This document shows positions 2,491-33,570 of a stretch of 33,570 bases of DNA, piece by piece; the first letter of the stretch is position 1; each line of letters begins with the position of its first letter. The stretch comes from a virus. The stretch lies in IMG/VR virus record IMGVR_UViG_3300004829_000003, one strand, 5' to 3'. The position numbers were made by a program, and so were the translations under genes. The notes beneath the pieces are model-generated. The model searched no databases. It was not told the DNA's origin and worked only from the letters and a program-made list of their open reading frames with translations.

Positions 2491-2877
2491 CTACGTCAAA
2501 TCTATACTGACCGATATGTCGCCAGCGTGCAGGTGCATGTGACGCTCTGGGGCCTTGAACCCAGCTCTGTCTAAGATATCCTTGCTCGCTTCTAACTGCA
2601 CGTACTCACTCTTGGCCCCACGAGCTAACTGCACCAGTCTAGCGGCGGCTATCGTAGCACTCACGCCCATAGTCTCACCAATCCTCTGCATCATATACGC
2701 TTGCACATGTGGCAGCCGCAAAGCCTTGCTGGCTGTCACTCTCCCACTCTCACCAGAAGCATAACCTGCCAAGCCAGCCGCTTCCGTTATGCTACATCCA
2801 TTTGCTACAAGCGCATCAACCAACGCGGTCTGCTTGGTGGTTAGCTTCTTCTCACCAGCCGTTATTACAGCACTCAT
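2491..2877 (-). CDS. Terminase small subunit-like HTH protein (Terminase_2-like pattern)
   Basis: KLTTKQTALVDALVANGCSITEAAGLAGYAS...ASKALRLPHVQAYM plus C-terminal LEASKDILDRAGF match the pattern I know from phage small terminases. It is the first gene of the minus-strand operon and is GC-rich relative to terL. Confidence 0.55.
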   Translation of the reverse strand: MSAVITAGEKKLTTKQTALVDALVANGCSITEAAGLAGYASGESGRVTASKALRLPHVQAYMMQRIGETMGVSATIAAARLVQLARGAKSEYVQLEASKDILDRAGFKAPERHMHLHAGDISVSIDLT

Positions 2878-2901
2878 TACACACCCTTGCGATTCTCATA
2901 A

Positions 2902-2921
2902 CCCCCCCTGTAATCCCCCCC
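2902..2921 (-). other. Potential G-quadruplex motif G7-ATTACA-G7 on the minus strand
   Basis: Plus strand reads ccccccc tgtaat ccccccc (2902-2908, 2915-2921). The minus strand can be parsed as G3-N1-G3-N6-G3-N1-G3, 25-44 nt upstream of the TerS-like start. Confidence 0.4.
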
Positions 2922-2951
2922 TACATACACGCTGCTCAACCCCCTTGTCAA
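2922..2951 (-). promoter_or_regulatory. Candidate sigma70-like promoter for the minus-strand operon
   Basis: Minus strand: TTGACA (2951..2946), 18-nt spacer, TATGTA (2927..2922). Host unknown and the -10 is weak. Confidence 0.2.
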
Positions 2952-3113
2952 CGCACAACATACGCCTGTCACACGCACACTGCCGCGAGCAAGGCGCAGT
3001 CCGCACCAGCGACCGTGACCGACCTTGCTCTCGGTGGCTTGCGCCAGCGAAGCCAGTGTGGTGTGACCGCCCGTTACTTATCAGCAAGAGAACTGCAACA
3101 CGACAATACATGC

Positions 3114-3128
3114 ATGCACGCAGTGCAT
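3114..3128. promoter_or_regulatory. 15-bp palindrome ATGCAC-GCA-GTGCAT (near-copy at 3425..3441)
   Basis: Perfect 6-bp arms around a GCA centre. It differs from the second copy only by one extra G:C pair per arm. Confidence 0.6.
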
Positions 3129-3148
3129 CAGTGTTGTCACACTGCTAG

Positions 3149-3197
3149 CTAGAACCACTACCAGAACCATAGGTTCTATCATAATTAGTGGTTCTAG
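3149..3197. repeat. Nested inverted repeat with four AGAACC/GGTTCT half-sites
   Basis: CTAGAACCACT (3149-3159) is the reverse complement of AGTGGTTCTAG (3187-3197). These enclose AGAACC-ata-GGTTCT (3163-3177). Confidence 0.8.
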
Positions 3198-3231
3198 TTA
3201 TGCAGACCAACTGGCCGTTGCGTCACTGGCT

Positions 3232-3246
3232 CTGGTCGCAGACCAG
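3232..3246. repeat. Palindrome CTGGTC-GCA-GACCAG
   Basis: Perfect 6-bp arms with the same C-GCA-G centre as 3114-3128 and 3425-3441. Confidence 0.6.
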
Positions 3247-3250
3247 TTGC

Positions 3251-3310
3251 GGATAGTCGAGCTGGTGCTATCGCCATGGGCGATTAGCGCACTAATAGCT
3301 CTGACTATCC
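3251..3310. repeat. Extended two-tier hairpin (12-bp outer helix, 9-bp inner helix)
   Basis: GGATAGTCGAGC (3251-3262) pairs with GCTC-t-GACTATCC (3298-3310). Inner GCTATCGCC-atg-GGCGAT(t)AGC spans 3267-3288. Confidence 0.65.
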
Positions 3311-3408
3311 GTAGCGTGGCGTAACGGACGTTGCAGTTGGATGTGCGGCGCAAGACGAGCTTGCGAGTCTTCACGCTGATAGGAGAACACACGCCGCACA
3401 AGTTACGG

Positions 3409-3509
3409 CCCAGCATAGCTGGGAATGGCACGCAGTGCCATGCATCTCCCAGATGCAGTAACTGGTGCTAGGCGGCATCGAGCCGCCTGCGAGTGTGTAC
3501 TCTACACAC
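3409..3509. repeat. Run of five consecutive short hairpins
   Basis: CCCAGC-ata-GCTGGG (3409-3423), ATGGCAC-gca-GTGCCAT (3425-3441), TGCATCT-ccc-AGATGCA (3441-3457), AGGCGGC-atcga-GCCGCCT (3470-3488), GTGTGTA-ctc-TACACAC (3493-3509). Confidence 0.75.
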
Positions 3510-3537
3510 ACACACGATGAGCGAATGTTATCACACA

Positions 3538-3556
3538 GTTCATGCCACGCATGAAC
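3538..3556. repeat. Hairpin GTTCATG-ccacg-CATGAAC
   Basis: Perfect 7-bp arms, read directly. Confidence 0.6.
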
Positions 3557-3578
3557 GGTGTGCCAGCACGCCCACTCG

Positions 3579-3667
3579 GTCAAGAGGTGCGATTCTTGCG
3601 CAGACATGCAAATGTCTGCGGTGCGCAAGAATAGCGACACCGCAAGTGCGGTGCTTCGCCTCTTGAC
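3579..3667 (+). ncRNA. Candidate cis-acting structured leader element (closing helix plus two hairpins, one GNRA-capped)
   Basis: GTCAAGAGG (3579-3587) pairs with CCTCTTGAC (3659-3667). Hairpin 1 is 3592-3632 with a GCAA loop (GNRA on the plus strand only). Hairpin 2 is 3634-3659. The element ends 90 nt upstream of ATG 3757. Confidence 0.4.
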
Positions 3668-3756
3668 TTTCGTGTCGGTCGTGATGGCCTCGATAACATA
3701 TTCGCACATAGTGTGTATGTGTGACGTTTTAGTGCTTAACTTATGGAGATTGTATT

Positions 3757-4380
3757 ATGGCACAAAAGAAGAAAATGACTGTAACTAAGATCGAAACTCC
3801 TGTACGTGATGCTGGATATGCAGAGCATATCGCAGCAGCGCATGACGCAGTGTTGAACTTGGTGGATATGAACATGACCGATGACTTTGATTCGCGCTTC
3901 GCGAATCAGGTATCGGGCGAGGAGAATCCCAAGTTCAACTCGTCAGCGCACTTCACATTTGGCTCACGTGCCAAAGCATCAGGTGTTGCGCTGCGCAAGA
4001 AGCGTGAACGCTTCTTCGAACTCGAGCATCAGTATGATGCTGAGGTCGAGCGCAACGGACCTGAGTCTGCAAAGCTCATCAACCTTGGCGCAAACAAGAA
4101 CAAGGCAGAAGCAGAGTGGCACACTCTGGATGCCTTGCACCAGATGGACGTTGACTTGTACAACACGATGCACAGCGTTGGGTCCATACTTGGACGCAAC
4201 GGTGCAGAGGCAAGTCAACCTCGCATCTGGAATGACGGGAAGCACACCGAGGACCACGGCGAAGCATGGTTCGAGCAGGTGTGCGAGCGCATCCTTGAGC
4301 GCAAGGTGTTGTCGCCGCAGGCGAACACACCGAAGGTTGACCCAGCTGAACTGCTAGCGAAGCTCAAGCGTTCAGCGTAA
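3757..4380 (+). CDS. Hypothetical 207-aa protein, first gene of the plus arm
   Basis: ATG 3757 is preceded by GGAG (3745-3748). The gene is GC-rich and is followed by an intrinsic terminator. No motif recognised. Confidence 0.75.
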   Translation: MAQKKKMTVTKIETPVRDAGYAEHIAAAHDAVLNLVDMNMTDDFDSRFANQVSGEENPKFNSSAHFTFGSRAKASGVALRKKRERFFELEHQYDAEVERNGPESAKLINLGANKNKAEAEWHTLDALHQMDVDLYNTMHSVGSILGRNGAEASQPRIWNDGKHTEDHGEAWFEQVCERILERKVLSPQANTPKVDPAELLAKLKRSA

Positions 4381-4409
4381 CCTGACACATAGTTTCCTCC
4401 CCAACTGGT

Positions 4410-4441
4410 GGTGGCTTCTACGGAAGCTGCCACCTTTTTTT
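4410..4441 (+). terminator. Rho-independent terminator
   Basis: GGTGGCTTC-tacg-GAAGC(tg)CCACC stem followed by a T7 run (4435-4441), 30 nt after the stop of the 207-aa gene. Confidence 0.75.
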
Positions 4442-4517
4442 GTGCAGTTATAAACCCAGACAAACTTGCGCACACTCCCATCAACTAGATGATAGTTGCG
4501 CTAGCGATGGTAAAACT

Positions 4518-4754
4518 ATGGAGACAAAAATGTTTCATGCTCATCCAAAAACTATAAGCAAACGATTGATTGTTTTATTCTCAATGATACTCATTTGTGC
4601 AATCGGCATTGCAATCGGCGGCTTGGTAATCATTCAAGAATCAGCAGGCATTCACAACTTTATTGGCTTGCTAATGGTGTTCATATCAGTGTTCACAAGC
4701 TTTTGGGCAACGTTAGGAATCATAATAAATGTAAGTGAATACAACAACTTATAA
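4518..4754 (+). CDS. Small two-TM membrane protein (78 aa)
   Basis: Track ORF 4440..4754 trimmed to ATG 4518 (METKMFHAH...). Two hydrophobic spans: LIVLFSMILICAIGIAIGGLVII and FIGLLMVFISVFTSFWATLGIII. RBS is weak and the start is uncertain. Confidence 0.55.
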   Translation: METKMFHAHPKTISKRLIVLFSMILICAIGIAIGGLVIIQESAGIHNFIGLLMVFISVFTSFWATLGIIINVSEYNNL

Positions 4755-4829
4755 TTTATTTGATTACTGCACTTGCAGAAGTGCAACAAATATGATATTA
4801 GTACAGAGTATCTGATGATGGAGGTCAAC

Positions 4830-5660
4830 ATGTACGCAGATATTACACAACAGATAATCAAAAAGATAGAGGATGGATGCCCACCGTGGTTGCGTCCATA
4901 CAACAAGTTTGGTGGTGGATTACCACTAAGACACAACGGCATACCATACAGAGGCATGAACATCATCATGCTATGGATGTGTGACTACGACAATCCATAC
5001 TGGATGACTTACAACCAAGCGCAACAGCTTGGCGGCAACTTGAAAGGTCAGAAGTCACCAACAAAAGTCTTTCACTTTGGCACAGCTAAAGACAAAGACA
5101 AAGAAGACAGATTCTATTCGTATGCCAAAGCATACTCTGTCTTCAATGCATCGCAGATAACTGGTTTGCCATCGCATTACTATCCAAAGCAAGAACTGTA
5201 TATCAATGCAGACAAACCTGTCGCATCTATCGACAAACAACTTGCTGATATCCCAGCTAAAGTTGTTGAGGTTGATGGATGCACACCTTGCTACCGTCCA
5301 GCAACAGATGAAGTCAAAATGCCACCGTGGTCTGACTTTGTTGATGGCCTTGCATATTACAGCACAAAGATACATGAACTTGTCCATTGGACAGGTCACG
5401 AATCCAGACTTGACCGCCTTGGTCTGAAGAACAAGAAAGGCTATGCCTTTGAAGAACTTGTTGCAGAGATGGGCGCGTCATTTATGATGGCACAACTCGG
5501 GCTAGAACCAACAGCACGAGATGACCATGCACAGTACATCTCATCATGGTTGCAAGCATTGAACAATGATGTGAAGTACGTGTTTGAAGCGGCGAAAGTC
5601 GCACAACAAGCTGTGGAACTACTCAATAGTCACACAGCGCAAGATGTAGCTATAGCATAG
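4830..5660 (+). CDS. ardC: ArdC-like protein: N-terminal ssDNA-binding (DUF1738-type) domain plus C-terminal zincin-like HExxH domain
   Basis: Start trimmed to ATG 4830 after GGAGG (gatggaggtcaacATG). Motifs: MYADITQQIIKKIEDGCPPWLRPY...GIPYRGMNIIMLW...WMTYNQAQQLGGNLKGQK, and HELVHWTGHESRLDR. Confidence 0.75.
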   Translation: MYADITQQIIKKIEDGCPPWLRPYNKFGGGLPLRHNGIPYRGMNIIMLWMCDYDNPYWMTYNQAQQLGGNLKGQKSPTKVFHFGTAKDKDKEDRFYSYAKAYSVFNASQITGLPSHYYPKQELYINADKPVASIDKQLADIPAKVVEVDGCTPCYRPATDEVKMPPWSDFVDGLAYYSTKIHELVHWTGHESRLDRLGLKNKKGYAFEELVAEMGASFMMAQLGLEPTARDDHAQYISSWLQALNNDVKYVFEAAKVAQQAVELLNSHTAQDVAIA

Positions 5661-5672
5661 GAGGTATATGTG

Positions 5673-6122
5673 ATGAGCATCTTTAATACAAAAGACCCAG
5701 TAGTTGAAGAAAATGTTATGCGTCAAAAGATTGAGCTTGTTCTCAATCGACAGACTGAGACATTGCATCAGCTAGTTGCAATCACCAAACAAATTGAGCA
5801 AGTAATGAAAGTTCTTACTCGTGTAGCATTAGATGTTTCATCCAAGGCAGCCAAGCCAGATGAAACAAAGCAACTAACTTTTGCGCCAATCAAACGCACA
5901 TATATTGCTGGCAAAAAAGACCTTGCTCGGTTGCAGCAACTGCATGACTTCATGTCTGGTGATATCCCCGTCAACTTGCCAACCCTGCAAGGTATATGGA
6001 GCTGCACAGAAAAAGCAGCATCAGGCACAATCTGGCGGTTTGATAAAGATGAACGATACATTGTAGAGCGCATCAAGATACAAGGGCAGCCTACATTGTT
6101 TACAATCAAGGAGGCATTATGA
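5673..6122 (+). CDS. Hypothetical 149-aa protein
   Basis: AGGAGG at 5659-5664, then ATG 5673. ATGA overlap with the next gene. Confidence 0.7.
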   Translation: MSIFNTKDPVVEENVMRQKIELVLNRQTETLHQLVAITKQIEQVMKVLTRVALDVSSKAAKPDETKQLTFAPIKRTYIAGKKDLARLQQLHDFMSGDIPVNLPTLQGIWSCTEKAASGTIWRFDKDERYIVERIKIQGQPTLFTIKEAL

Positions 6123-6400
6123 CCTTACCTACCTACCTTACAGCACAGCAGGGCATGTTCGATGCCCTGCAAGTGCAGAAGCACCACCAAACAACCATTG
6201 ATTTGGTGAAGGTTGGCACAGCACTTGGCAACAAGTTATGGCCCAACGAAATCATGACTGTTGCCGAATGCATTGTTGGCAAAGACACACCAGCATTCAA
6301 CCATCTCATCAAGCATGCGATGGAAGAATACGAAAGACTAGCAGATGCAGAAATGGAGGTAATCGCAGATGGATACTGCACAAATCAACACATCGCCTGA
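6119..6400 (+). CDS. Hypothetical 93-aa protein
   Basis: AGGAGG precedes ATG 6119. ATGA coupling to the upstream gene. Confidence 0.7.
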   Translation: MTLPTYLTAQQGMFDALQVQKHHQTTIDLVKVGTALGNKLWPNEIMTVAECIVGKDTPAFNHLIKHAMEEYERLADAEMEVIADGYCTNQHIA

Positions 6401-6596
6401 GATGTCATGGTCACAGGCTCATGGGATTATACAAACCCTTGTAATCGCTAAGATTGTTGCTCTTGAGAGCAAAGCCAAATCGCATGAAGAAGAACATGAA
6501 GAAGAAGACTACTCTCATGCAGAGGCGGCAAAGGTATATCGTCGTGAAGCAGAAGTTTTACGTGAAGCACTCTTTGTTTTAGCAAGAGGCGTATAA
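6369..6596 (+). CDS. Hypothetical small acidic protein (75 aa; alternative start ATG 6402)
   Basis: Track ORF with a glutamate/histidine-rich centre (SHEEEHEEEDYSH). The start is ambiguous between 6369 and 6402. Confidence 0.5.
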   Translation: MDTAQINTSPEMSWSQAHGIIQTLVIAKIVALESKAKSHEEEHEEEDYSHAEAAKVYRREAEVLREALFVLARGV

Positions 6597-6602
6597 AACA
6601 TA

Positions 6603-6645
6603 GCGTCAAGGCCAGAAAGCCATCAATACTGGATGGCCTTGACGC
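6603..6645 (+). repeat. 11-bp perfect inverted repeat (stem-loop; possible weak terminator or operator)
   Basis: GCGTCAAGGCC (6603-6613) and GGCCTTGACGC (6635-6645) with a 21-nt loop and no trailing T-run. It lies between the 75-aa gene and the HTH pair. Confidence 0.6.
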
Positions 6646-6649
6646 ATTT

Positions 6650-6877
6650 ATGCTACACAGTTATATGTACTATATGATTACATATTTAGAACAATTAAAT
6701 AATGCAGCTGCGCCAACTGGCATAAAGTTAGTTGAGTTTTTCAAGCAAGCAAAAATACCTACGTCAACATACTATCGTGCAATCGGGGGTCAAGATTTGC
6801 GTCTGTCAACAGCAACAAAGGTTGAAGATGCGATCCAAACTTACTCATTACACAAATCCCAAAGTGAATACGAATAG
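6650..6877 (+). CDS. Small HTH-like DNA-binding protein (start 6650, 6665 or 6674)
   Basis: IKLVEFFKQAKIPTSTYYRAIGG resembles a helix-turn-helix. Confidence 0.5.
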   Translation: MLHSYMYYMITYLEQLNNAAAPTGIKLVEFFKQAKIPTSTYYRAIGGQDLRLSTATKVEDAIQTYSLHKSQSEYE

Positions 6878-7079
6878 TTGGCAAGATTTAGTAGCAACTC
6901 TTGTGGCTATTAGAAACAAACGTGGCTATAGTCAAGAAGAGTTGGCGCACCGCATTGGATGTGCTGCATCTTTGATACACAAATGGGAACAATACAAAAG
7001 AGTTCCGTCAGGATTTATGTTTGTCTGCTGGCTGGATGCGCTCGAAGCGCAAATCGAAATCAAAGAAACTACAGGATAG
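6828..7079 (+). CDS. XRE/Cro-family HTH regulator
   Basis: RGYSQEELAHRIGCAASLIHKWEQYKRVPS is a classic Cro/C1-type HTH. The start is uncertain (ATG 6828 overlaps the upstream ORF; GTG 6864 is possible). Confidence 0.65.
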   Translation: MRSKLTHYTNPKVNTNSWQDLVATLVAIRNKRGYSQEELAHRIGCAASLIHKWEQYKRVPSGFMFVCWLDALEAQIEIKETTG

Positions 7080-7347
7080 CAGAGGAAAACCTGCCGCATG
7101 TGAACATTGTGGAAGCACATCGCACTGGTTTTCAGTGATGGCAAGCGGCTCTATTTGGTGTGATGATTGTTTGGAGTATTACGGATGGGAACATCTAGCC
7201 GCAACAAAGGCAGCTACCACGAACGATGGTGGTGTAACTGGTTCAATGAGAAGGGGTGCGAAGCGAAACGCCAACCGCTATCTGGCGCGTTGGGAGGTGA
7301 GTGGAAGTCCGATATCTCTATCGCCACCAGACAAGGAAGATTGGTAG
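7021..7347 (+). CDS. Possible zinc-ribbon ORF overlapping neighbours in another frame
   Basis: CEHCGSTSHWFSVMASGSIWCDDC gives a CxxC...CxxC pattern. The distal half overlaps the resolvase gene out of frame and looks like noise, so the extent is uncertain. Confidence 0.3.
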   Translation: MSAGWMRSKRKSKSKKLQDSRGKPAACEHCGSTSHWFSVMASGSIWCDDCLEYYGWEHLAATKAATTNDGGVTGSMRRGAKRNANRYLARWEVSGSPISLSPPDKEDW

Positions 7348-7523
7348 CTGAATCAAAGTATCAAGCTACTGGACGTGGCTTCTCGTTTCTTACCAAGACA
7401 CACAAGACACAACCAGCAGACATCTATCTTCTCAAACAGAAGACAGGGCCAAACTTTATATGCATTGAAGTCAACAACCCGTTGGCTGAAAAAATAGCGC
7501 GATGGCTAGCTGGAGGTGACTAA
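7185..7523 (+). CDS. Hjc-like PD-(D/E)XK Holliday-junction resolvase / endonuclease
   Basis: Trimmed to ATG 7185 after GGAG. NKGSYHERWWCNWFNEKGCEAKRQPLSG...SDISIA...VAESK matches the KGxxxER...R.P.SG...DI...E.K pattern of archaeal-type resolvases. Confidence 0.65.
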   Translation: MGTSSRNKGSYHERWWCNWFNEKGCEAKRQPLSGALGGEWKSDISIATRQGRLVAESKYQATGRGFSFLTKTHKTQPADIYLLKQKTGPNFICIEVNNPLAEKIARWLAGGD

Positions 7524-7579
7524 CCATCGCGCCGCGCATTTGGAGGTCTGACTGCGCACGACACAGAATACTTTTATTC

Positions 7580-7608
7580 TTGATACTGTCAAGGCACACT
7601 GCTAGACT
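7580..7608 (+). promoter_or_regulatory. Candidate sigma70-like promoter
   Basis: TTGATA (7580-7585), 17-nt spacer, TAGACT (7603-7608), in the 100-nt gap after the resolvase gene. Confidence 0.25.
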
Positions 7609-7627
7609 ATTCGATACGGAGGTCAAT

Positions 7628-7855
7628 ATGAAACAGCGTGATCCAAACTACAGGCTGCCGCGCAATCAGGTTATACCTGACAAGCGACAGTCTCTCATTG
7701 AAAGCATGCATGAACAGGAGGTTTTAGATGCAAGCATTGACAACAGAAATCAAAGCCAAAGCACTGGCTCGTCTAACAGACGCAGCTACCAAGCCAATGC
7801 TAGTGACGAGCATGATAGAAGATGGCGTGAGTTCATTAGTTCCATTGGAAACTAA
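7628..7855 (+). CDS. Possible small ORF (75 aa) overlapping the next gene
   Basis: GGAGG plus 7 nt precede ATG 7628, but the last ~128 nt overlap the 7728 gene and translate to low-complexity sequence. Confidence 0.35.
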   Translation: MKQRDPNYRLPRNQVIPDKRQSLIESMHEQEVLDASIDNRNQSQSTGSSNRRSYQANASDEHDRRWREFISSIGN

Positions 7856-8252
7856 GCTGAACAAACATTACGAACTTGTCTTCTATCGTATTGATCGTGA
7901 CGCCCCACTACACAGATTGCATGAAGCATACGAGATGGTGCAAAAAGCCCTAGTACCTTTGCCTGTTAAAGATATTGAAGAGCGTATTACTATGCTTTGT
8001 GCGTTGATTACTTTAGCAAAGGACTTCAGCCCAAAGGTGCTTGACATGAAGCGCAAAGCTCTTGCATCTAAGCTGGCAGAATATCCAGCTGACATTGTGA
8101 TTGATGCATTTGGTTACATCGAGCGCAATGTCAGGTTTTTTCCAACACTAGCAGAGTTTATCAACGAAGCTGGCATTGGCTGGAAGTCTAAGCCACGGTT
8201 CATGTTACGTGATGAGTTGCAGAAATGCATTGATTACCAAGAGGCGGTGTGA
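7728..8252 (+). CDS. Hypothetical 174-aa protein (weak resemblance to phage helicase-loader / replisome-organiser C-terminal pattern)
   Basis: AGGAGG precedes ATG 7728. LAEYPADIVIDAFGYIERNVRFFPTLAEFI resembles the 'yp..v..A...y.......fPt.aei' pattern of G39P-like loaders. This is from memory only. Confidence 0.6.
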   Translation: MQALTTEIKAKALARLTDAATKPMLVTSMIEDGVSSLVPLETKLNKHYELVFYRIDRDAPLHRLHEAYEMVQKALVPLPVKDIEERITMLCALITLAKDFSPKVLDMKRKALASKLAEYPADIVIDAFGYIERNVRFFPTLAEFINEAGIGWKSKPRFMLRDELQKCIDYQEAV

Positions 8253-8256
8253 TACG

Positions 8257-8355
8257 ATGGACGAAGATGAATTAGAAGATGACGGCCAGCCAAGCTGGGA
8301 GCAAGAGTGGGAGGATTTTGGCGAAGTCTACGATGACGAGCCAACCCACATATAA
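8257..8355 (+). CDS. Possible 32-aa highly acidic micro-ORF
   Basis: Hand translation MDEDELEDDGQPSWEQEWEDFGEVYDDEPTHI (15 of 32 residues are D/E). It fills the gap between genes, has a weak RBS and is below the track cutoff. Confidence 0.3.
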   Translation: MDEDELEDDGQPSWEQEWEDFGEVYDDEPTHI

Positions 8356-8372
8356 ATAGATGGAGGTCTATC

Positions 8373-9155
8373 ATGGAAAGAAAAGGTTTTATCGGCGGCT
8401 CCGATATGTATTCAATCGTTCGTGGCGATTGGAATACGCTATGGCATGTCAAAACTGGACGCACTGAACCAGAAAATCTGAGCGATGAATTCAATGTGCA
8501 GCTTGGCATTCGCACTGAATCATTCAACATGGAGTGGCTTGCCAAGTGTACTGGCTGGGATGTAATGACAAGCCCAGATATTATACGCAAGAAAATATCT
8601 GGCGTTCCCTATCAAGCAAGAGCAGATGGCATAGCTTACGACAAAGATGGCGTAGCTATGATTGTCGAGTGCAAACATACAGCAAGCTACCGCAGCATGT
8701 CAGATATGTTGGATGCATATCTACCACAAGTACATTTGTATATGCGCATACATGAACTAGACAAAGCTGTATTCTCTGTCATCTTTGGCAATCAATGGGA
8801 ATATTGTGTAGTAGATTTCAACAAAGATTATTGGAAAGAGGTTAGTACACAAGCGTATCAATTCTGGCAAATGGTAGAGTCTGACGTTGAGCCAGTACAA
8901 AATCATGCCAACAAAGTTGATTGGGCAAACGTCAAGATTGATGGTCTTGTTATGCGTGATGCAAGCAAAGACAACGAGTTTATGGACGCTGCTCACAGAT
9001 TTGTGAATAGTTCACAGACAGCCAAGGAACATGAGGCCGTCAAAAAAGAATTGCGGTCAATGGTAAAAGACACAGAACGTGAAGTCTATTGTGATCTATT
9101 GACCATAAAGCGTGACAAGCGTGGTGCTTGTCGTATCACAATCAACTCTGACTAG
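8373..9155 (+). CDS. YqaJ-like / lambda-exonuclease-type PD-(D/E)XK recombination exonuclease
   Basis: GGAGG RBS; GFIGGSDMYSIVRG...ADGIAY...MIVECKHT pattern. It sits immediately upstream of the annealing protein. Confidence 0.7.
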   Translation: MERKGFIGGSDMYSIVRGDWNTLWHVKTGRTEPENLSDEFNVQLGIRTESFNMEWLAKCTGWDVMTSPDIIRKKISGVPYQARADGIAYDKDGVAMIVECKHTASYRSMSDMLDAYLPQVHLYMRIHELDKAVFSVIFGNQWEYCVVDFNKDYWKEVSTQAYQFWQMVESDVEPVQNHANKVDWANVKIDGLVMRDASKDNEFMDAAHRFVNSSQTAKEHEAVKKELRSMVKDTEREVYCDLLTIKRDKRGACRITINSD

Positions 9156-9164
9156 GAGGTAACA

Positions 9165-9611
9165 ATGGCAGAGAAAAAACAAACCATCGCTGATGCATTT
9201 ATTTCATGGCATGCAGAAGAAGTAAAGGCTAGCAAAGACGGCAAGAACCCACACTTTCGTTCAACATATTCTACGTTAGAAGAAGTGATTGCTGCTTGCC
9301 GCAAAGCAGGTCAACATGGCCTGACGTTTACACAGCTAATTGATATGGATGATACTGGTCGCATGTTTGTCAAGACTATTGTCATGCATGTCAATGGCGA
9401 AGTGTTGACAAGCCGCACACCCATCGTGTCACAAGACTTGACTAATCCACAAAAGATGGGGTCAGGCATTACCTATGCTAAACGCTATGGTTTGCAAGCT
9501 GCGTTTGGTCTACCGTCAGAAGATGACGATGGAAATAAAGCAGCAGAACCAAAGACTTACAAAGAACCAATGCCACACAACACACCAACAGACCAACCGT
9601 CAGAATATTAG
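9165..9611 (+). CDS. erf: ERF-family single-strand annealing protein
   Basis: AGGAGG RBS; NPHFRSTYSTLEEVIAACRKAGQHGL...NPQKMGSGITYAKRYGLQAAFGLPSEDDDG is the ERF signature as I know it. Confidence 0.7.
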   Translation: MAEKKQTIADAFISWHAEEVKASKDGKNPHFRSTYSTLEEVIAACRKAGQHGLTFTQLIDMDDTGRMFVKTIVMHVNGEVLTSRTPIVSQDLTNPQKMGSGITYAKRYGLQAAFGLPSEDDDGNKAAEPKTYKEPMPHNTPTDQPSEY

Positions 9612-9620
9612 GAGCAATAC

Positions 9621-10055
9621 ATGGACAACAAACTTAGTCATAACAAAGGCAGAGTCTTTCCTATTACAGAAAAAGATGAACAATACATTGGCAAGCCAAT
9701 TTTGTCAGGCAAGCTCAACATTGAAGAATGGGCAAAACAAATAGATGATGAGTACGAACCACGTTGTGTGCTGTTCAAAAAAGAAATAAACGGACAGCGC
9801 AAATTAGCTGTCTTTATAGAAATTGGTTTGATGCATGACAACGGTCCTGATGTGCCAGAGGGCAAGCCCAACTATGGCGGCAAGATTGGTCAGCAGAACA
9901 TATCTGCGTACAAAAACAAATCACAGAATGGCTCAGATTACATGGGGCTTAGTGTCTACACACCAAACAAAGACCCAGAGCCAACAAGACAAGAACAGGT
10001 TATCCAACCAGCAACAGTCGATGGGGGAACAATCGATGACGACATCCCGTTCTGA
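9621..10055 (+). CDS. Atypical single-stranded DNA-binding protein with a canonical acidic tip
   Basis: The C-terminus is DDDIPF and the gene follows exo and erf. The N-terminal ~120 aa do not resemble a bacterial SSB OB fold by eye. Confidence 0.55.
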   Translation: MDNKLSHNKGRVFPITEKDEQYIGKPILSGKLNIEEWAKQIDDEYEPRCVLFKKEINGQRKLAVFIEIGLMHDNGPDVPEGKPNYGGKIGQQNISAYKNKSQNGSDYMGLSVYTPNKDPEPTRQEQVIQPATVDGGTIDDDIPF

Positions 10056-10263
10056 TCGCACAACGACAGCCAACCCATACAACGCAACGCCCTACAAAGT
10101 AGGCGTTGTTGTTGAACACTTTGTTGAGTTTTGCTTTGCTGCCCAAAATACAGCAGAAGCAAAACTCATAGTAGAAAACAAACTGCGAAAGTTTAAAAAC
10201 CCTACACAACTACAAAAAGCAGTAATAGGTGATATACATTTTATTGAAGTCAAAGAAGTTTGA
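10036..10263 (+). CDS. Hypothetical 75-aa protein
   Basis: Track ORF 9835..10263 trimmed to ATG 10036 (alternative 10021), a 20-nt overlap with the SSB-like gene. Confidence 0.5.
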   Translation: MTTSRSDRTTTANPYNATPYKVGVVVEHFVEFCFAAQNTAEAKLIVENKLRKFKNPTQLQKAVIGDIHFIEVKEV

Positions 10264-10412
10264 TGACAACAAAAACCTATACCGTCACCCTTACAGGCAA
10301 ACAAGTAAAGCTATTGTTAGAGCTTACAAAACATCCTGCACTAGCAAAAGCAGTACAAGCTAAACACATTGTAAACCTACAATCTATTTGCAGAAAGATA
10401 AAAGAAACATGA
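10263..10412 (+). CDS. Hypothetical 49-aa protein
   Basis: Hand translation MTTKTYTVTLTGKQVKLLLELTKHPALAKAVQAKHIVNLQSICRKIKET. There is a TGATG overlap upstream and an ATGA overlap downstream. Confidence 0.4.
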   Translation: MTTKTYTVTLTGKQVKLLLELTKHPALAKAVQAKHIVNLQSICRKIKET

Positions 10413-10936
10413 TGCGTAAATGGAAAATCAAAAGAGGCGAGATGCTTGAAGATTTAATAAGCCTCCTACAATTAAGAGCCTCATCAACAGGCAAACAAAA
10501 AAAAGAAATTGATGACCAAATTATAGAACGACATGCAATGCCGTGGTATGAAGAAGGTTATGTTGATAGCGAAAGAAAAATAAAGTTTGTTAAAAAGGCA
10601 AAAAAATTAATCCAAAAGATATCTCATCTTATTAACCAACCACACGAACTATCACAAAAATGGATGAGTGGCATATCAAATATAGATGAAGGATATGGGC
10701 CACATGCGCCAAATCCACCTTCAATATTAAATGAAGAATCAATAAAAGAGCAATTTAGAATATGGCATTGGACAGGTGGCGCACAAGGCCACAAAGGCCA
10801 ACAAGGTTATGCTATGTCTAAAGCTATTAAAGATAGATTAGATAAAACTAGATTAGACATAGAAACTTATCAAAGAAGGTTACAAGACAATGCTGAAGAA
10901 AAATTTTTGGCAGAAAAAAACAGAGAGATAAATTAG
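10409..10936 (+). CDS. Hypothetical 175-aa protein (AT-rich gene)
   Basis: Track ORF trimmed to ATG 10409. No motif recognised. Confidence 0.6.
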   Translation: MMRKWKIKRGEMLEDLISLLQLRASSTGKQKKEIDDQIIERHAMPWYEEGYVDSERKIKFVKKAKKLIQKISHLINQPHELSQKWMSGISNIDEGYGPHAPNPPSILNEESIKEQFRIWHWTGGAQGHKGQQGYAMSKAIKDRLDKTRLDIETYQRRLQDNAEEKFLAEKNREIN

Positions 10937-10938
10937 AC

Positions 10939-11253
10939 ATGAATCGTGCAGATATATTATCTAAAGCACACGATGCTGTGCAATCAAGAGGCACAGACTA
11001 TGGCTCACCAGCAGAAAACTTTGAACGCATTGCAGCAATCTGGTCAGCGTATGCAGACACAGAGTTTAGTGTAGAGGATGTTGGCATAATGATGATGATA
11101 GTAAAGATATCACGTCTGATGGAAACACCAGCACACGAAGATAGCTGGGTAGACTTAGCTGGCTATGCTGCTATTACTGCCGAAGCGATAGCAGATAGTC
11201 AAGATAATCTGCACCTGCTTGCGGATCAACAAAACATTGAACCCAAGAAGTAG
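10939..11253 (+). CDS. Conserved phage protein (DUF6378-like pattern)
   Basis: RGTDYGSPAENFERIAAIWS...DVGIMMMIVKISRL...HEDSWVDLAGYAA matches a widespread phage family from memory. The last 80 nt overlap the convergent gene. Confidence 0.55.
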   Translation: MNRADILSKAHDAVQSRGTDYGSPAENFERIAAIWSAYADTEFSVEDVGIMMMIVKISRLMETPAHEDSWVDLAGYAAITAEAIADSQDNLHLLADQQNIEPKK

Positions 11254-12166
11254 GTGAATCAGATTGAGGGTCTATCAACTGAAAGATAGCTTGTCCAAAG
11301 TTTTGCTGGTCAAAACCTTTGACCATGGCGTAAGTGTCATGGAATTTATAACCACGACATCTGGCAAGCCACGCTGTACTTTTCTTTTCCACGTCTTCAA
11401 TTTGCGCCAAGCCCCAGTTATGCCTGTGTCCACTTATGTACAACTCGGCATGACCTTTAAACCTAGCCATTTTGTTTTGGGCGTGAAGCGAGTTCCATTG
11501 GCTATGGCCCGACATGTCGTGAGCCGCGTGTATGCGGCACTGCCGTCCATTTGGAAACCGAAGGTTGACTCTGGCCTCCCAGTCTTCACGAATGGTGTGA
11601 CCACTAGCTATCCATTTCAACGGGTCGCCAGCACCAGACCACATGTCATGGTTGCCGCCAATGAGAACAAGCGGATTCATCTCGCCTATCAACCATTCAA
11701 CTAACTTCCACGCTGTTTTATGGGATGTGTCCTGTTCGCCGTACAATCGCCCCAGACGGCCAACCCAGTTATTCTGGTAGTCACCTACCGAACAGCCATA
11801 GATGTGCGTGTGTGAGGCTATTATGGACAAATGAGAGCGTAATGAATCCCAATCGCAGTAATTGTCATCAATATGTGGGTCGCCTAACCACAAAAGCCCG
11901 ATGGGATCATCGGACTTCATCTCAATATTATACCAACGTGTAGCTTCTTTGAATTGTTTGCGCTTCTGAAAGCGGTTATGAAGATGCTTGACTATCTCTT
12001 CGACAGGCAAATCATCTTCTGGTATCTCTGGCAGAATGTATGATTGGTTCTTGACTTCGTTAAGTCTGCGATGAAACTCGCTCTTTGAGATGCCTAATGA
12101 TTTTGCCGCATCTCTAATGTTACCGTATGTATCGTATGCCGCTTCAATTTCAGCTTTCTTTTCCAT
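11174..12166 (-). CDS. HTH domain fused to a calcineurin-like metallophosphoesterase
   Basis: N-terminal YGNIRDAAKSLGISKSEFHRRL (HTH), then GDPHIDD, GDYQNN, GGNHD and GHRH, which together form the D..H/GD/GNHD/GHxH metallophosphoesterase motif set. Confidence 0.7.
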   Translation of the reverse strand: MEKKAEIEAAYDTYGNIRDAAKSLGISKSEFHRRLNEVKNQSYILPEIPEDDLPVEEIVKHLHNRFQKRKQFKEATRWYNIEMKSDDPIGLLWLGDPHIDDNYCDWDSLRSHLSIIASHTHIYGCSVGDYQNNWVGRLGRLYGEQDTSHKTAWKLVEWLIGEMNPLVLIGGNHDMWSGAGDPLKWIASGHTIREDWEARVNLRFPNGRQCRIHAAHDMSGHSQWNSLHAQNKMARFKGHAELYISGHRHNWGLAQIEDVEKKSTAWLARCRGYKFHDTYAMVKGFDQQNFGQAIFQLIDPQSDSPTSWVQCFVDPQAGADYLDYLLSLRQ

Positions 12167-33358: not shown

Positions 33359-33570
33359 TTAATATCCTTTAAACATGTGACGAATTGCTCTTGCTATGCT
33401 AGGGCCACGCTTACCTTCAGCGGCAACTCTGCTTCCAGACACGCCACCTAACAATGAATAAGCCATTTGTTTTCTTTTTTGAGACATGCCTCTTTCTTTT
33501 AATTTTCTTGATAACAAAGAAACTTCATCAGTAACAGTTGGCTGGTCTTCTCTTTTTTTAACAACAGCAA
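33359..33570 (-). CDS. 3' part of the junction-spanning 121-aa ORF (see 1..277)
   Basis: In frame with 277..1 through the repeat. It ends ...MAYSLLGGVSGSRVAAEGKRGPSIARAIRHMFKGY, with TAA at 33361..33359. Confidence 0.6.
   Translation of the reverse strand, partial: AVVKKREDQPTVTDEVSLLSRKLKERGMSQKRKQMAYSLLGGVSGSRVAAEGKRGPSIARAIRHMFKGY
33448..33570. repeat. Second copy of the 123-bp terminal direct repeat
   Basis: Exact match to 1..123. Confidence 0.95.

Follow-up and report, generated by a model that had tools for sequence, protein, structure and literature searches.

What fills the long stretch without open reading frames (ORFs) between the two divergent gene arms of a marine podophage genome, and does it act as RNA or as DNA? 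The question arises in IMG/VR record IMGVR_UViG_3300004829_000003, whose whole 33,570 nucleotides (nt) we call the window. Positions 2878 to 3756 lie between a leftward gene resembling a terminase small subunit (TerS) and the first rightward early gene, ORF207, and form the largest noncoding region of the genome, at the point where all transcription diverges. A first-pass annotation of the letters had read this gap as a G+C-rich hub of perfect, partly nested hairpins and had offered a large structured RNA or a novel origin, packaging, or control element as candidates. We find a real, selected, and previously undescribed structured noncoding element of 0.8 to 1.2 kb that is restricted to a few lineages. 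The earlier proposal survives as a selected folded nucleic acid, whereas its packaging option does not; a plus-strand RNA is our tentative preference, and an array of DNA hairpins is a possibility that we entertain with some doubt.

Hairpin density and selected pairing

Counting only perfect stems of at least 6 bp with loops of 3 to 5 nt, we found 15 hairpins in the 879 nt of the gap, compared with 0.87 ± 0.90 (maximum, 5) in 1,000 dinucleotide shuffles; a back-of-envelope expectation of fewer than one had been about right. Density was 17 hairpins per kb in 2878-3756 versus 1.3 per kb across the remaining genome. Every stem previously listed by hand was recovered: 2987-2994/3023-3030 (8 of 8 pairs), 3035-3040/3050-3055 (6 of 6), 3149-3159/3187-3197 (11 of 11), 3251-3262/3298-3310 with one bulge, 3267-3288 as four outer pairs around an inner hairpin at 3270-3284, 3579-3667 closed by a 9-bp helix, and the single-span hairpins with perfect 6- to 8-bp stems and loops of 3 to 5 nt. 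The minimum free energy (MFE) with RNA parameters was -399.6 kcal/mol for each strand, well below that of dinucleotide shuffles on both (z = -15.1 for plus and -10.9 for minus), and folding of the plus strand with DNA parameters gave z = -19.5. The gap is also the most G+C-rich part of the genome (54.5%, with 60-nt windows at 48 to 67%), compared to 43.1% genome-wide and 42.6% in the structural genes, much as the first-pass annotation had it. The limits 2878-3756 that it set for the field proved too narrow, as five further perfect hairpins with 7- to 9-bp stems lie at 3815-4128 inside ORF207.

Mechanical ORFs of 46 to 147 amino acids overlap the region and could be taken for hidden small protein genes. 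However, substitutions relative to four homologues showed no 3-nt periodicity by codon position (12:14:13 and 79:83:75), indels of 1, 4, 5, 8, 16, 17, and 23 nt disrupt all of the mechanical ORFs, and relatives keep none open within 2878-3756, so that the earlier view of a gap with no credible ORF holds. A nonfunctional build-up of palindromes is contradicted by the compensatory changes and loop-restricted substitutions described below, and we give next to no credence to either explanation.

Known elements did not account for the region. A nucleotide search of it against 50,697 GenBank phages returned no match, and a tRNA/tmRNA search found nothing. Rfam gave no match at the gathering threshold over the whole window (including GOLLD, ROOL, OLE, HEARO, raiA, group I and II introns, tmRNA, and riboswitches), only chance-level matches (E of at least 1.1) over 2700-4500, and none on 11 related loci; the earlier remark that no annotated feature explains the region can be extended to Rfam families. 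Repeated boxes or a repeat family were absent from the region, which contains only short two-copy chance repeats. Literature on Pelagibacter phage EXVC031P and on hairpin-rich regions of related phages offered nothing relevant.

The gap was alignable in only ~25 contigs from 4 to 5 lineages, against more than 596 TerS relatives in IMG/VR. Among relatives 89 to 99% identical, substitutions sit in loops (for example, CAC/ACC at 3538-3556), and whole hairpin modules are present, absent, or exchanged for other hairpins. The L092-L095 lineage (L numbers denote related loci), ~70% identical, again has 15 perfect hairpins and many compensatory changes. In a nine-sequence alignment with an RNAalifold consensus of 191 pairs, 22 pairs carried double compensatory changes, compared with 12.5 ± 2.1 in column shuffles (0 of 500 reached 22) and 0 to 5 in controls with slid partners; 99% of cells were paired in the consensus structure. 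Covariation extends to long-range helices that span 70 to 200 nt and close multi-branch domains, among them the outer helix of D1, the long hairpin of D3, and a closing helix of D4 (domains listed below); the D5 junction covaries as well. In the L115/L099 lineage, whose ORF207 is ~50% identical, the leader (the stretch preceding ORF207) can be aligned in patches only, and D3, the hairpin with an ATCGA loop, the CA/GT closing helix, and the D5 junction are kept with different helix sequences. Taken together, the compensatory changes and loop-restricted substitutions show that pairing in the field is under selection. With the conserved multi-branch domains, they also uphold the earlier argument that the stems are neither an operator array nor chance palindromes.

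A family-wide sliding MFE profile showed recurrent structure ~200 to 400 nt and 700 to 1,000 nt upstream of TerS, although variable gap lengths smear the signal too much for it to decide the matter. Scanning IMG/VR and GTDB genomes for patterns added one lineage, L115, and found no bacterial copy of the element.

Domains of the element and inheritance with ORF207

The field is made up of five multi-branch domains (D1 to D5) and single hairpins, and the unit to which it belongs continues through ORF207 to a terminator:

2964 to 3070, plus strand: domain D1, with outer helix 2964-2982/3054-3070 around hairpins 2983-2995/3022-3034 and a small 3035-3046
3114 to 3144, plus strand: adjacent pair of hairpins with perfect stems, 3114-3128 (loop GCA/GTA/GAA) and 3129-3144
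3146 to 3200, plus strand: variable nested-hairpin module, an 11-bp stem (3149-3159/3187-3197) enclosing hairpin 3163-3177
3215 to 3327, plus strand: domain D3, a three-way junction with closing helix 3215-3226/3316-3327 and hairpins 3232-3246 and 3246-3315
3342 to 3400, plus strand: 9-bp helix 3342-3350/3392-3400 and hairpin 3349-3365, alternative pairings (inverted repeat I15)
3387 to 3496, plus strand: domain D4, a multi-way junction with helices 3387-3394/3489-3496 and 3396-3406/3458-3468, from the consensus structure and pair counts
3498 to 3728, plus strand: domain D5, with a CA-repeat/GT-repeat closing helix pairing 3498-3515 with ~3711-3728 (inverted repeats I1, I4, I5, I10, and I13)
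3757 to 4380, plus strand: ORF207, the first early gene, encoding a conserved orphan protein; Shine-Dalgarno sequence GGAG at 3746-3749
3815-3831, 3888-3908, 3997-4016, 4025-4041, and 4112-4128, plus strand: in-gene hairpins with perfect 7- to 9-bp stems in ORF207
4407 to 4441, plus strand: intrinsic terminator (hairpin 4407-4434), with a 12-bp stem, seven G-C pairs, and a T7 run

In D1, three compensatory pairs fall in the outer helix and five in the inner hairpin, with 98 to 99% of cells paired (RNAalifold, alignment A2). Hairpin 3129-3144 reads GAGCGC/GCGCTC in the L092/L097 lineage in place of CAGTGT/ACACTG, a change of three compensatory pairs. The nested module at 3146-3200 occurs in the window, L081, L082, L089, and L090, while L083-L087 are without the whole unit. 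The D3 hairpin 3232-3246 has loop GCA, GTA, ACA, or ATA, and the long hairpin 3246-3315, which carries the apical hairpin 3270-3284, has five compensatory pairs; junction and loop residues of D3 are nearly invariant. The L115 lineage keeps the same D3 architecture with a shorter outer stem and GCACA/TGTGC replacing GAGCT/AGCTC, and a covariance model of D3 (R1) matched only the window, L130, L092, and L115, a known clade. At 3342-3400 the L092 lineage has swapped the structure for a different 8-bp hairpin, GCGGCGGG-GAACA-CCCGCCGC.

D4 encloses hairpins 3409-3423, 3425-3441, and 3441-3457, together with hairpin 3470-3488 and its conserved ATCGA loop. Hairpin 3425-3441 changes from ATGGCAC/GTGCCAT to ATGGCGC/GCGCCAT, and L099 and L115 retain the ATCGA loop on a stem altered from AGGCGGC/GCCGCCT to AATCGGC/GCCGATT. 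D5 encloses hairpin 3532-3562 and a three-way junction at 3579-3667, itself formed by a 9-bp outer helix (3579-3587/3659-3667) and hairpins 3589-3635 and 3638-3653. This junction is retained with other helix sequences in L083/L084, L092, L099, and L115, and even the unalignable L079 leader has an analogous junction with outer helix GTCAA...TTGAC. A GNRA loop had been cited in favor of a folded RNA; that argument falls away, as the GCAA at 3608-3611 reads GTCA, GCAT, or a TGT triloop in relatives.

Hairpins in the first ~375 nt of ORF207 are preserved through compensatory changes. Stem 3815-3831 changes from GATATGC/GCATATC to GACATGC/GCATGTC, and the palindrome at 3888 is rebuilt in L092 and L097 by alternative codons with the residues unchanged. 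The loop of 4112-4128 varies among GCA, GGA, and GAA, its middle base being the first base of codon CAC, GAC, or AAC in sequenced relatives; the residue there is His, Asp, Asn, or Tyr among homologues. Since the loop G and A are kept, the codon appears to be limited to NAC.

ORF207 itself is a real gene, as judged from the third-position bias of its substitutions (4:2:18 up to 27:23:92 by codon position). Its protein has a conserved basic helix, RKKRER, and homologues at 48 to 51% identity by sequence search and ~27% by tblastn or hidden Markov model (HMM), with motifs conserved at 51%. No Pfam, PHROG, or PDB match was found for it, and its AlphaFold model was poor (predicted local distance difference test score, 54). 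HMM searches placed genes of L022, L034, L041, L071, L079, L107, and L115 in the family, and the leaders of all nine ORF207-family lineages, down to ~27% identity, are 400 to 930 nt long and strongly folded (z = -7 to -12). On its right the G+C-rich unit ends at the terminator (4407-4441); in L099 and L079, too, long G+C-rich hairpins stand directly 3' of the ORF207 homologue. No promoter-like site was seen between terminator hairpin 4407-4434 and the ArdC-like gene downstream. A mechanical ORF, ORF104 (4440-4754), starts with TTG 5 nt past the terminator T run and is uncalled in near-identical contigs, and it may not be a gene. In those contigs the ArdC-like start lies ~223 nt after ORF207, versus 392 nt here, and the stretch is indel variable.

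On the other side of the field, three features belong to the leftward arm:

2922 to 2951, minus strand: probable sigma-70-type promoter of the TerS operon, with -35 TTGACA (2951-2946), an 18-nt spacer, and -10 TATGTA (2927-2922)
2902 to 2921, minus strand: twin C7 tracts (G7-N6-G7 on the minus strand), directly downstream of the -10 hexamer in the TerS 5' untranslated region
2491 to 2877, minus strand: TerS-like gene (128 amino acids), the left neighbor, which opens the leftward late/structural arm

The leftward promoter was read by eye; the consensus scanner rejects TATGTA for the A at the sixth position of this -10 hexamer. Both hexamers are invariant and the spacer is variable in alignments A1 and A2, while distant relatives have TTGACA-N18-CATAAA or TATAAA, and phage Hodr has TTGACA-17-TATACT without G tracts. 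Its placement at 2951-2922 puts the hairpin field upstream of the leftward promoter. The twin G tracts are invariant in all close relatives and take the form G6-8 N5-6 G6-8 family-wide. At the predicted transcript start, they are a possible site for reiterative transcription, an R-loop, or a regulator. Promoter and G-tract motif together were seen upstream of TerS in L009, L012, L025, L039, L052, L054, L057, L059, L077, L079, L107, and L115.

Exchanges between relatives separate the leader from TerS. In L131, the TerS protein matches fully (100% identity) and the gap is 96% identical over its first 80 nt, after which come an unrelated structured leader of 256 nt and then a different first gene. 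L038 has ArdC in common from window position 4818 onward but another 1.6 kb between the leftward promoter and ArdC. The leader is thus inherited with the first early gene rather than with TerS. The left junction of the exchanged cassette (L131 1-606; L038 3000-6400) directly follows TTGTCAACGCACA, which is the -35 region of the leftward promoter; on the right, the junction lies within the ArdC-like gene, at its 5' end. Mosaicism also extends to the leader, with a 75-nt insertion common to L086 and L097 and a 3' block common to L083 and L092.

This pattern of inheritance bears on the suggestion of a packaging (pac or cos) recognition region for TerS. The field adjoins the TerS-like gene, and four short public contigs begin at 2919-2928, as might be expected of a packaging site. 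However, an identical TerS occurs with an unrelated leader in L131, the leader covaries with ORF207 and not with TerS, repeated binding boxes are missing, TerS-side contigs cross 2919, and complete relative contigs start at unrelated positions. A pac or TerS site is therefore rejected as very improbable. The four contigs (L122, L123, L124, and L126, from independent public assemblies) start in or just past the second C7 tract, probably at an assembly or sequencing break caused by the homopolymer pair; they may also mark a transcript 5' end in metatranscriptome-derived assemblies. Their use as evidence of a transcript start or genome end was dropped, as TerS-side contigs cross the site.

RNA leader or DNA hairpins

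Our favored explanation, which we hold tentatively and at less than even confidence, is that the region belongs to the first early gene cassette as its cis-acting leader, folds as a single strand, and acts as plus-strand RNA. The transcript would consist of the ~0.8-kb leader plus ORF207 and end at terminator 4407-4434. It would fold cotranscriptionally into five independently closed multi-branch domains, D1 to D5, of very stable short hairpins, with structured stretches reaching into the first third of the ORF207 coding sequence. Speculatively, such a regulatory leader might control or stabilize early operon expression. Processive antitermination, as in lambda N/nut or HK022 put, is a further speculative option, raised because ORF207, with its basic helix, is followed immediately by a strong terminator and no promoter is apparent ahead of the early genes that come after it.

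The multi-branch domains, the linkage to a gene, the continuation into mRNA, and the terminator-bounded unit all favor RNA, as does the occurrence of a G+C-rich island in an A+T-richer genome. Three asymmetries point to the plus strand. Its folding advantage over shuffles is larger than that of the minus strand in 9 of 9 ORF207-bearing lineages, by 2 to 29 kcal/mol; allowing G-U pairs in the core gains 31.6 kcal/mol on the plus strand and 4.5 on the minus strand; and plus-strand triloops are of the type R-N-A (G/A-N-A) closed by C-G, almost never the complement. We infer that the element is transcribed and that the plus strand is the functional one.

Several observations weigh against an RNA leader. 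Pairing in the stems is strictly Watson-Crick, and the two strands of 2878-3756 do not differ in MFE. One-sided changes in stems showed no preference for G-T over A-C (25 versus 33 and 15 versus 21), in pair sets that are noisy because replaced modules misalign. Triloops close 9 of the 15 hairpins and are of the cGNAg/cANAg type of hyperstable DNA mini-hairpins, while tetraloops are not enriched on the plus strand (GNRA, 2 versus 7 on the minus strand; UNCG, 1 versus 1) and unpaired or loop residues are not A rich (A, 427; T, 395); neither strand leaned toward RNA in tetraloop type or loop composition. The leader contains no boxA-like sequence, and no rightward sigma-70-like promoter with at least 8 of 12 matches occurs in 2860-3800, in contrast to the plainly sigma-70-like leftward one. 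Across the window and six related leaders no conserved rightward sigma-70 promoter was found; only L079 has a plausible one, mid-leader, at TTGGGC-17-TATAAT. A hand-picked rightward candidate, TTGCGA-16-TGTAAT (2887-2914), was dropped as unconserved in relatives.

Comparison with known RNAs gives a mixed picture. GOLLD, ROOL, OLE, and HEARO share the 0.6- to 0.9-kb size class, phage context, multi-branch helices, covariation, and G+C-rich island, and HEARO also lies directly upstream of a protein gene with which it is coinherited. Membership in GOLLD, ROOL, or a similar family, in whose size class the region had first been placed, found no support: no covariance model matched even at E = 10. 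The helices here are short, perfect, Watson-Crick only, and mostly capped by triloops; GNRA/receptor-type features are lacking, conserved unpaired blocks are few except in D3, and the distribution is narrow (~25 contigs, 4 to 5 lineages). The layout of leader, basic-motif protein, terminator, and recombination genes resembles lambda pL-nutL-N-tL1. As in the lambda N/nut and HK022 put systems, hairpins lie in an early-operon leader, a small first gene with a basic motif is followed by a strong terminator, and recombination genes lie further downstream; the intrinsic terminator directly after the first early gene is one that would have to be read through. In contrast to nut and put, there is no boxA and there are no boxB-like pentaloops, the leader is 10 to 20 times longer than a nut or put site, and ORF207 has no detectable similarity to N. 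A search for boxA (YGCTCTTTA-like, at most one mismatch) found none in 2878-3756 and only chance-level matches genome-wide.

The same loop chemistry could instead mean that the region is a plus-strand-specific array of DNA mini-hairpins that folds when that strand is single stranded, a reading we consider possible if doubtful. Exposure could come from negative supercoiling between the divergent units, from injected DNA, from R-loop or D-loop displacement, or on the lagging-strand template. SSB-resistant cGNAg hairpins could then offer host primase or PriA a structure-specific point of entry, as at ssi sites and G4-type origins, or alternatively as hairpin-dependent control sites like N4 promoters. 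Perfect Watson-Crick palindromes, equal MFE on both strands, and the DNA-parameter z of -19.5 fit this reading, as do seven or eight distinct plus-strand GNA triloop hairpins closed by C-G, against 0 TNC. Triloops on this strand read cGCAg three times, beside cGTAg, cGAAg, and cANAg variants. In the GNA loops the middle base is free and the G and A are kept, even within coding sequence. Only GNA loops give extraordinarily stable DNA mini-hairpins, which are known at the G4, St-1, and alpha3 origins, RSF1010 ssiA, and N4 promoters (PMC13037366, PMC4496689). Also in its favor are substitutions without G-U tolerance, the absence of RNA-type tetraloops, A-rich loops, and an upstream promoter, the lack of a polymerase, primase, helicase, or initiator in the scanned ORFs, and the position of the field at the transcription divergence point and cumulative GC-skew minimum.

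The DNA reading is opposed by the covarying long-range helices and the three- and four-way junctions, which need 100 to 230 nt of continuous single strand. Such folding is natural for RNA; for cruciforms in duplex DNA it is, to our knowledge, undocumented. Phages with identical TerS differ by a joint swap of leader and first gene, which is unexpected for an essential origin; an A+T-rich unwinding element, iterons, and DnaA boxes are all absent from the region, as they would not be in an iteron/DnaA-type origin; and GC skew is confounded by gene orientation. The hairpins share no flanking consensus, and their loop centers are mostly pyrimidines, unlike those of N4 promoters.

Known DNA hairpin systems show the same mixture of likeness and difference. 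N4 virion-RNA-polymerase promoters have 5- to 7-bp stems and 3-nt loops and lie at the start of an early region (PMC4496689), and 2878-3756 contains nine hairpins with 6- to 8-bp stems and 3-nt loops. The N4 type extrudes from supercoiled DNA, with the hairpin of one strand stable, and N4 promoters share a purine at loop center -11, G at -10 and -8, and C at +1 (PMC4496689). Here, the loop centers are C, T, T, T, C, C, T, and A, and the ~20 hairpins have unrelated stems and no common flanking or +1 sequence. Pfam and PHROGs detected no RNA polymerase domain, of the N4 virion type or other, in any ORF, no fold-level search having been made. The ssi/primosome sites (G4, St-1, and alpha3 oric; phiX174 n' site; ColE1 pas; RSF1010 ssiA) are likewise clusters of SSB-resistant hairpins on one strand, and G4-type origins share the GNA mini-hairpin loops (PMC13037366), a likeness to set beside the lack of a detected initiator in this phage. 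However, ssi signals are 50 to 150 nt long, have one to three hairpins, and belong to replicons with an obligatory single-stranded DNA stage, whereas the element here has ~20 hairpins over 0.8 to 1.2 kb of a double-stranded DNA podophage and is swapped together with a gene. Overall, its size and domain layout are like those of large phage RNAs, and its stem-loop chemistry is like that of ssi or N4 hairpins.

A more specific proposal, which we regard as unlikely, is a new type of origin or entry site in which ~20 hyperstable plus-strand mini-hairpins over ~1.2 kb directly recruit host primase, PriA, or SSB-dependent machinery. The hairpins would fold once the plus strand is unwound and replace a phage-encoded initiator. 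In a related variant, the ORF207 protein family may work in complex with the folded nucleic acid.

A duplex-DNA element without strand preference seems improbable, whether as a supercoil sink or cruciform field that would couple the divergent promoters or buffer them, or as palindromic binding sites for proteins. The field does lie between the leftward sigma-70-like promoter and the early genes, its short-spacer palindromes represent the type most prone to extrusion, and both strands fold nearly equally. However, stem sequences change freely while complementarity is kept, which argues against recognition of half-sites by a protein, and the strand-asymmetric loop types, the covariation of nested long-range helices, and the extension of the hairpins into coding sequence are equally at odds with such an element.

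Genome setting and implications

The window ends (1-123 and 33448-33570) are identical over 123 bp, which makes the window a single 33,447-bp circular map. Because complete relative contigs begin at unrelated positions, the overlap reflects circular assembly rather than a mapped terminal repeat. The phage is a marine podophage of roughly 33.4 kb, from a large and abundant family of ~33-kb marine podophages; its nearest cultured relative is Pelagibacter phage EXVC031P Hodr, which infects SAR11 (62% identity in portal and 61% in TerS). Its set of structural genes, with portal, major head protein, tail tube proteins A and B, internal proteins, and TerL, is T7-like. Among the scanned ORFs, Pfam and PHROGs turned up no RNA polymerase, DNA polymerase, primase, helicase, or initiator, and the largest proteins (1070, 737, 698, and 689 amino acids) are a tail protein, a tail fiber, and two orphans at the internal-protein position. 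The plus-strand early arm (3757-11253) encodes the orphan ORF207, an ArdC-like antirestriction protein, a RecE-like exonuclease, and Erf, and all genes outside it lie on the minus strand, beginning with the TerS-like gene at 2877. The latter assignment rests on Pfam Terminase_2 (2e-7; 32.1 bits, cutoff 26.1) and PHROG 51, terminase small subunit (1e-12).

In T7, a noncoding early control region of ~0.9 kb at the left end, filled with strong sigma-70 promoters and an RNase III site, precedes the antirestriction gene 0.3. The present phage has a noncoding stretch of similar length before early genes that include an antirestriction (ArdC-like) gene, besides T7-like structural genes; in contrast to T7, the stretch is full of hairpins and has no detectable promoters of this kind. 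In Hodr (L091, OQ414635) the homologous divergent gap (4637-4973) is just 337 nt, mostly one imperfect inverted repeat of ~200 bp, with the ribosome-binding site of the first early gene falling in the outer arms.

Cumulative GC skew on the circular map has its minimum at ~3200, in the hairpin field, and its maximum at ~11200, where the gene arms converge, a pattern confounded with gene orientation. Within the plus-strand early operon, a strong terminator-like hairpin on the minus strand (7496-7533; 15-bp stem, T6) lies beside promoter-like sites on both strands at 7565-7608. The minus-strand ORF at 11174-12166 encodes an SbcD/Mre11-like metallophosphatase with an N-terminal helix-turn-helix (PHROG 7339, 4e-39; Pfam Metallophos_2 and HTH matches weak), so that a hairpin-processing type of nuclease coexists with the hairpin field and with RecE-like and Erf recombination genes. 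TerS relatives L137-L141 occur in Tara Oceans metagenome-assembled genomes labeled Methanobacteriota archaeon, Gammaproteobacteria, and Rhodobiaceae, and one ORF207 homologue carries a Flavobacteriaceae label; such labels conflict and the phage contigs are evidently misbinned, so this taxonomy gives no host.

The element sits where transcription diverges and is under clear selection for structure. If it acts as RNA, it would be a new family of large multi-domain phage RNA, tied to an orphan early protein and a gated terminator, and would lend itself to study as a candidate for a new mechanism of antitermination or RNA-protein takeover. If it acts as DNA, an ordinary double-stranded DNA phage would use hairpin-based recognition on a large scale, a mode known to us so far only from single-stranded DNA phages, plasmids, and N4, and a phage without replication genes could recruit the host replisome. 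Should the origin or entry-site proposal be true, the hairpin-recognition logic of G4 and N4 would extend to replication or early control in abundant marine podophages.

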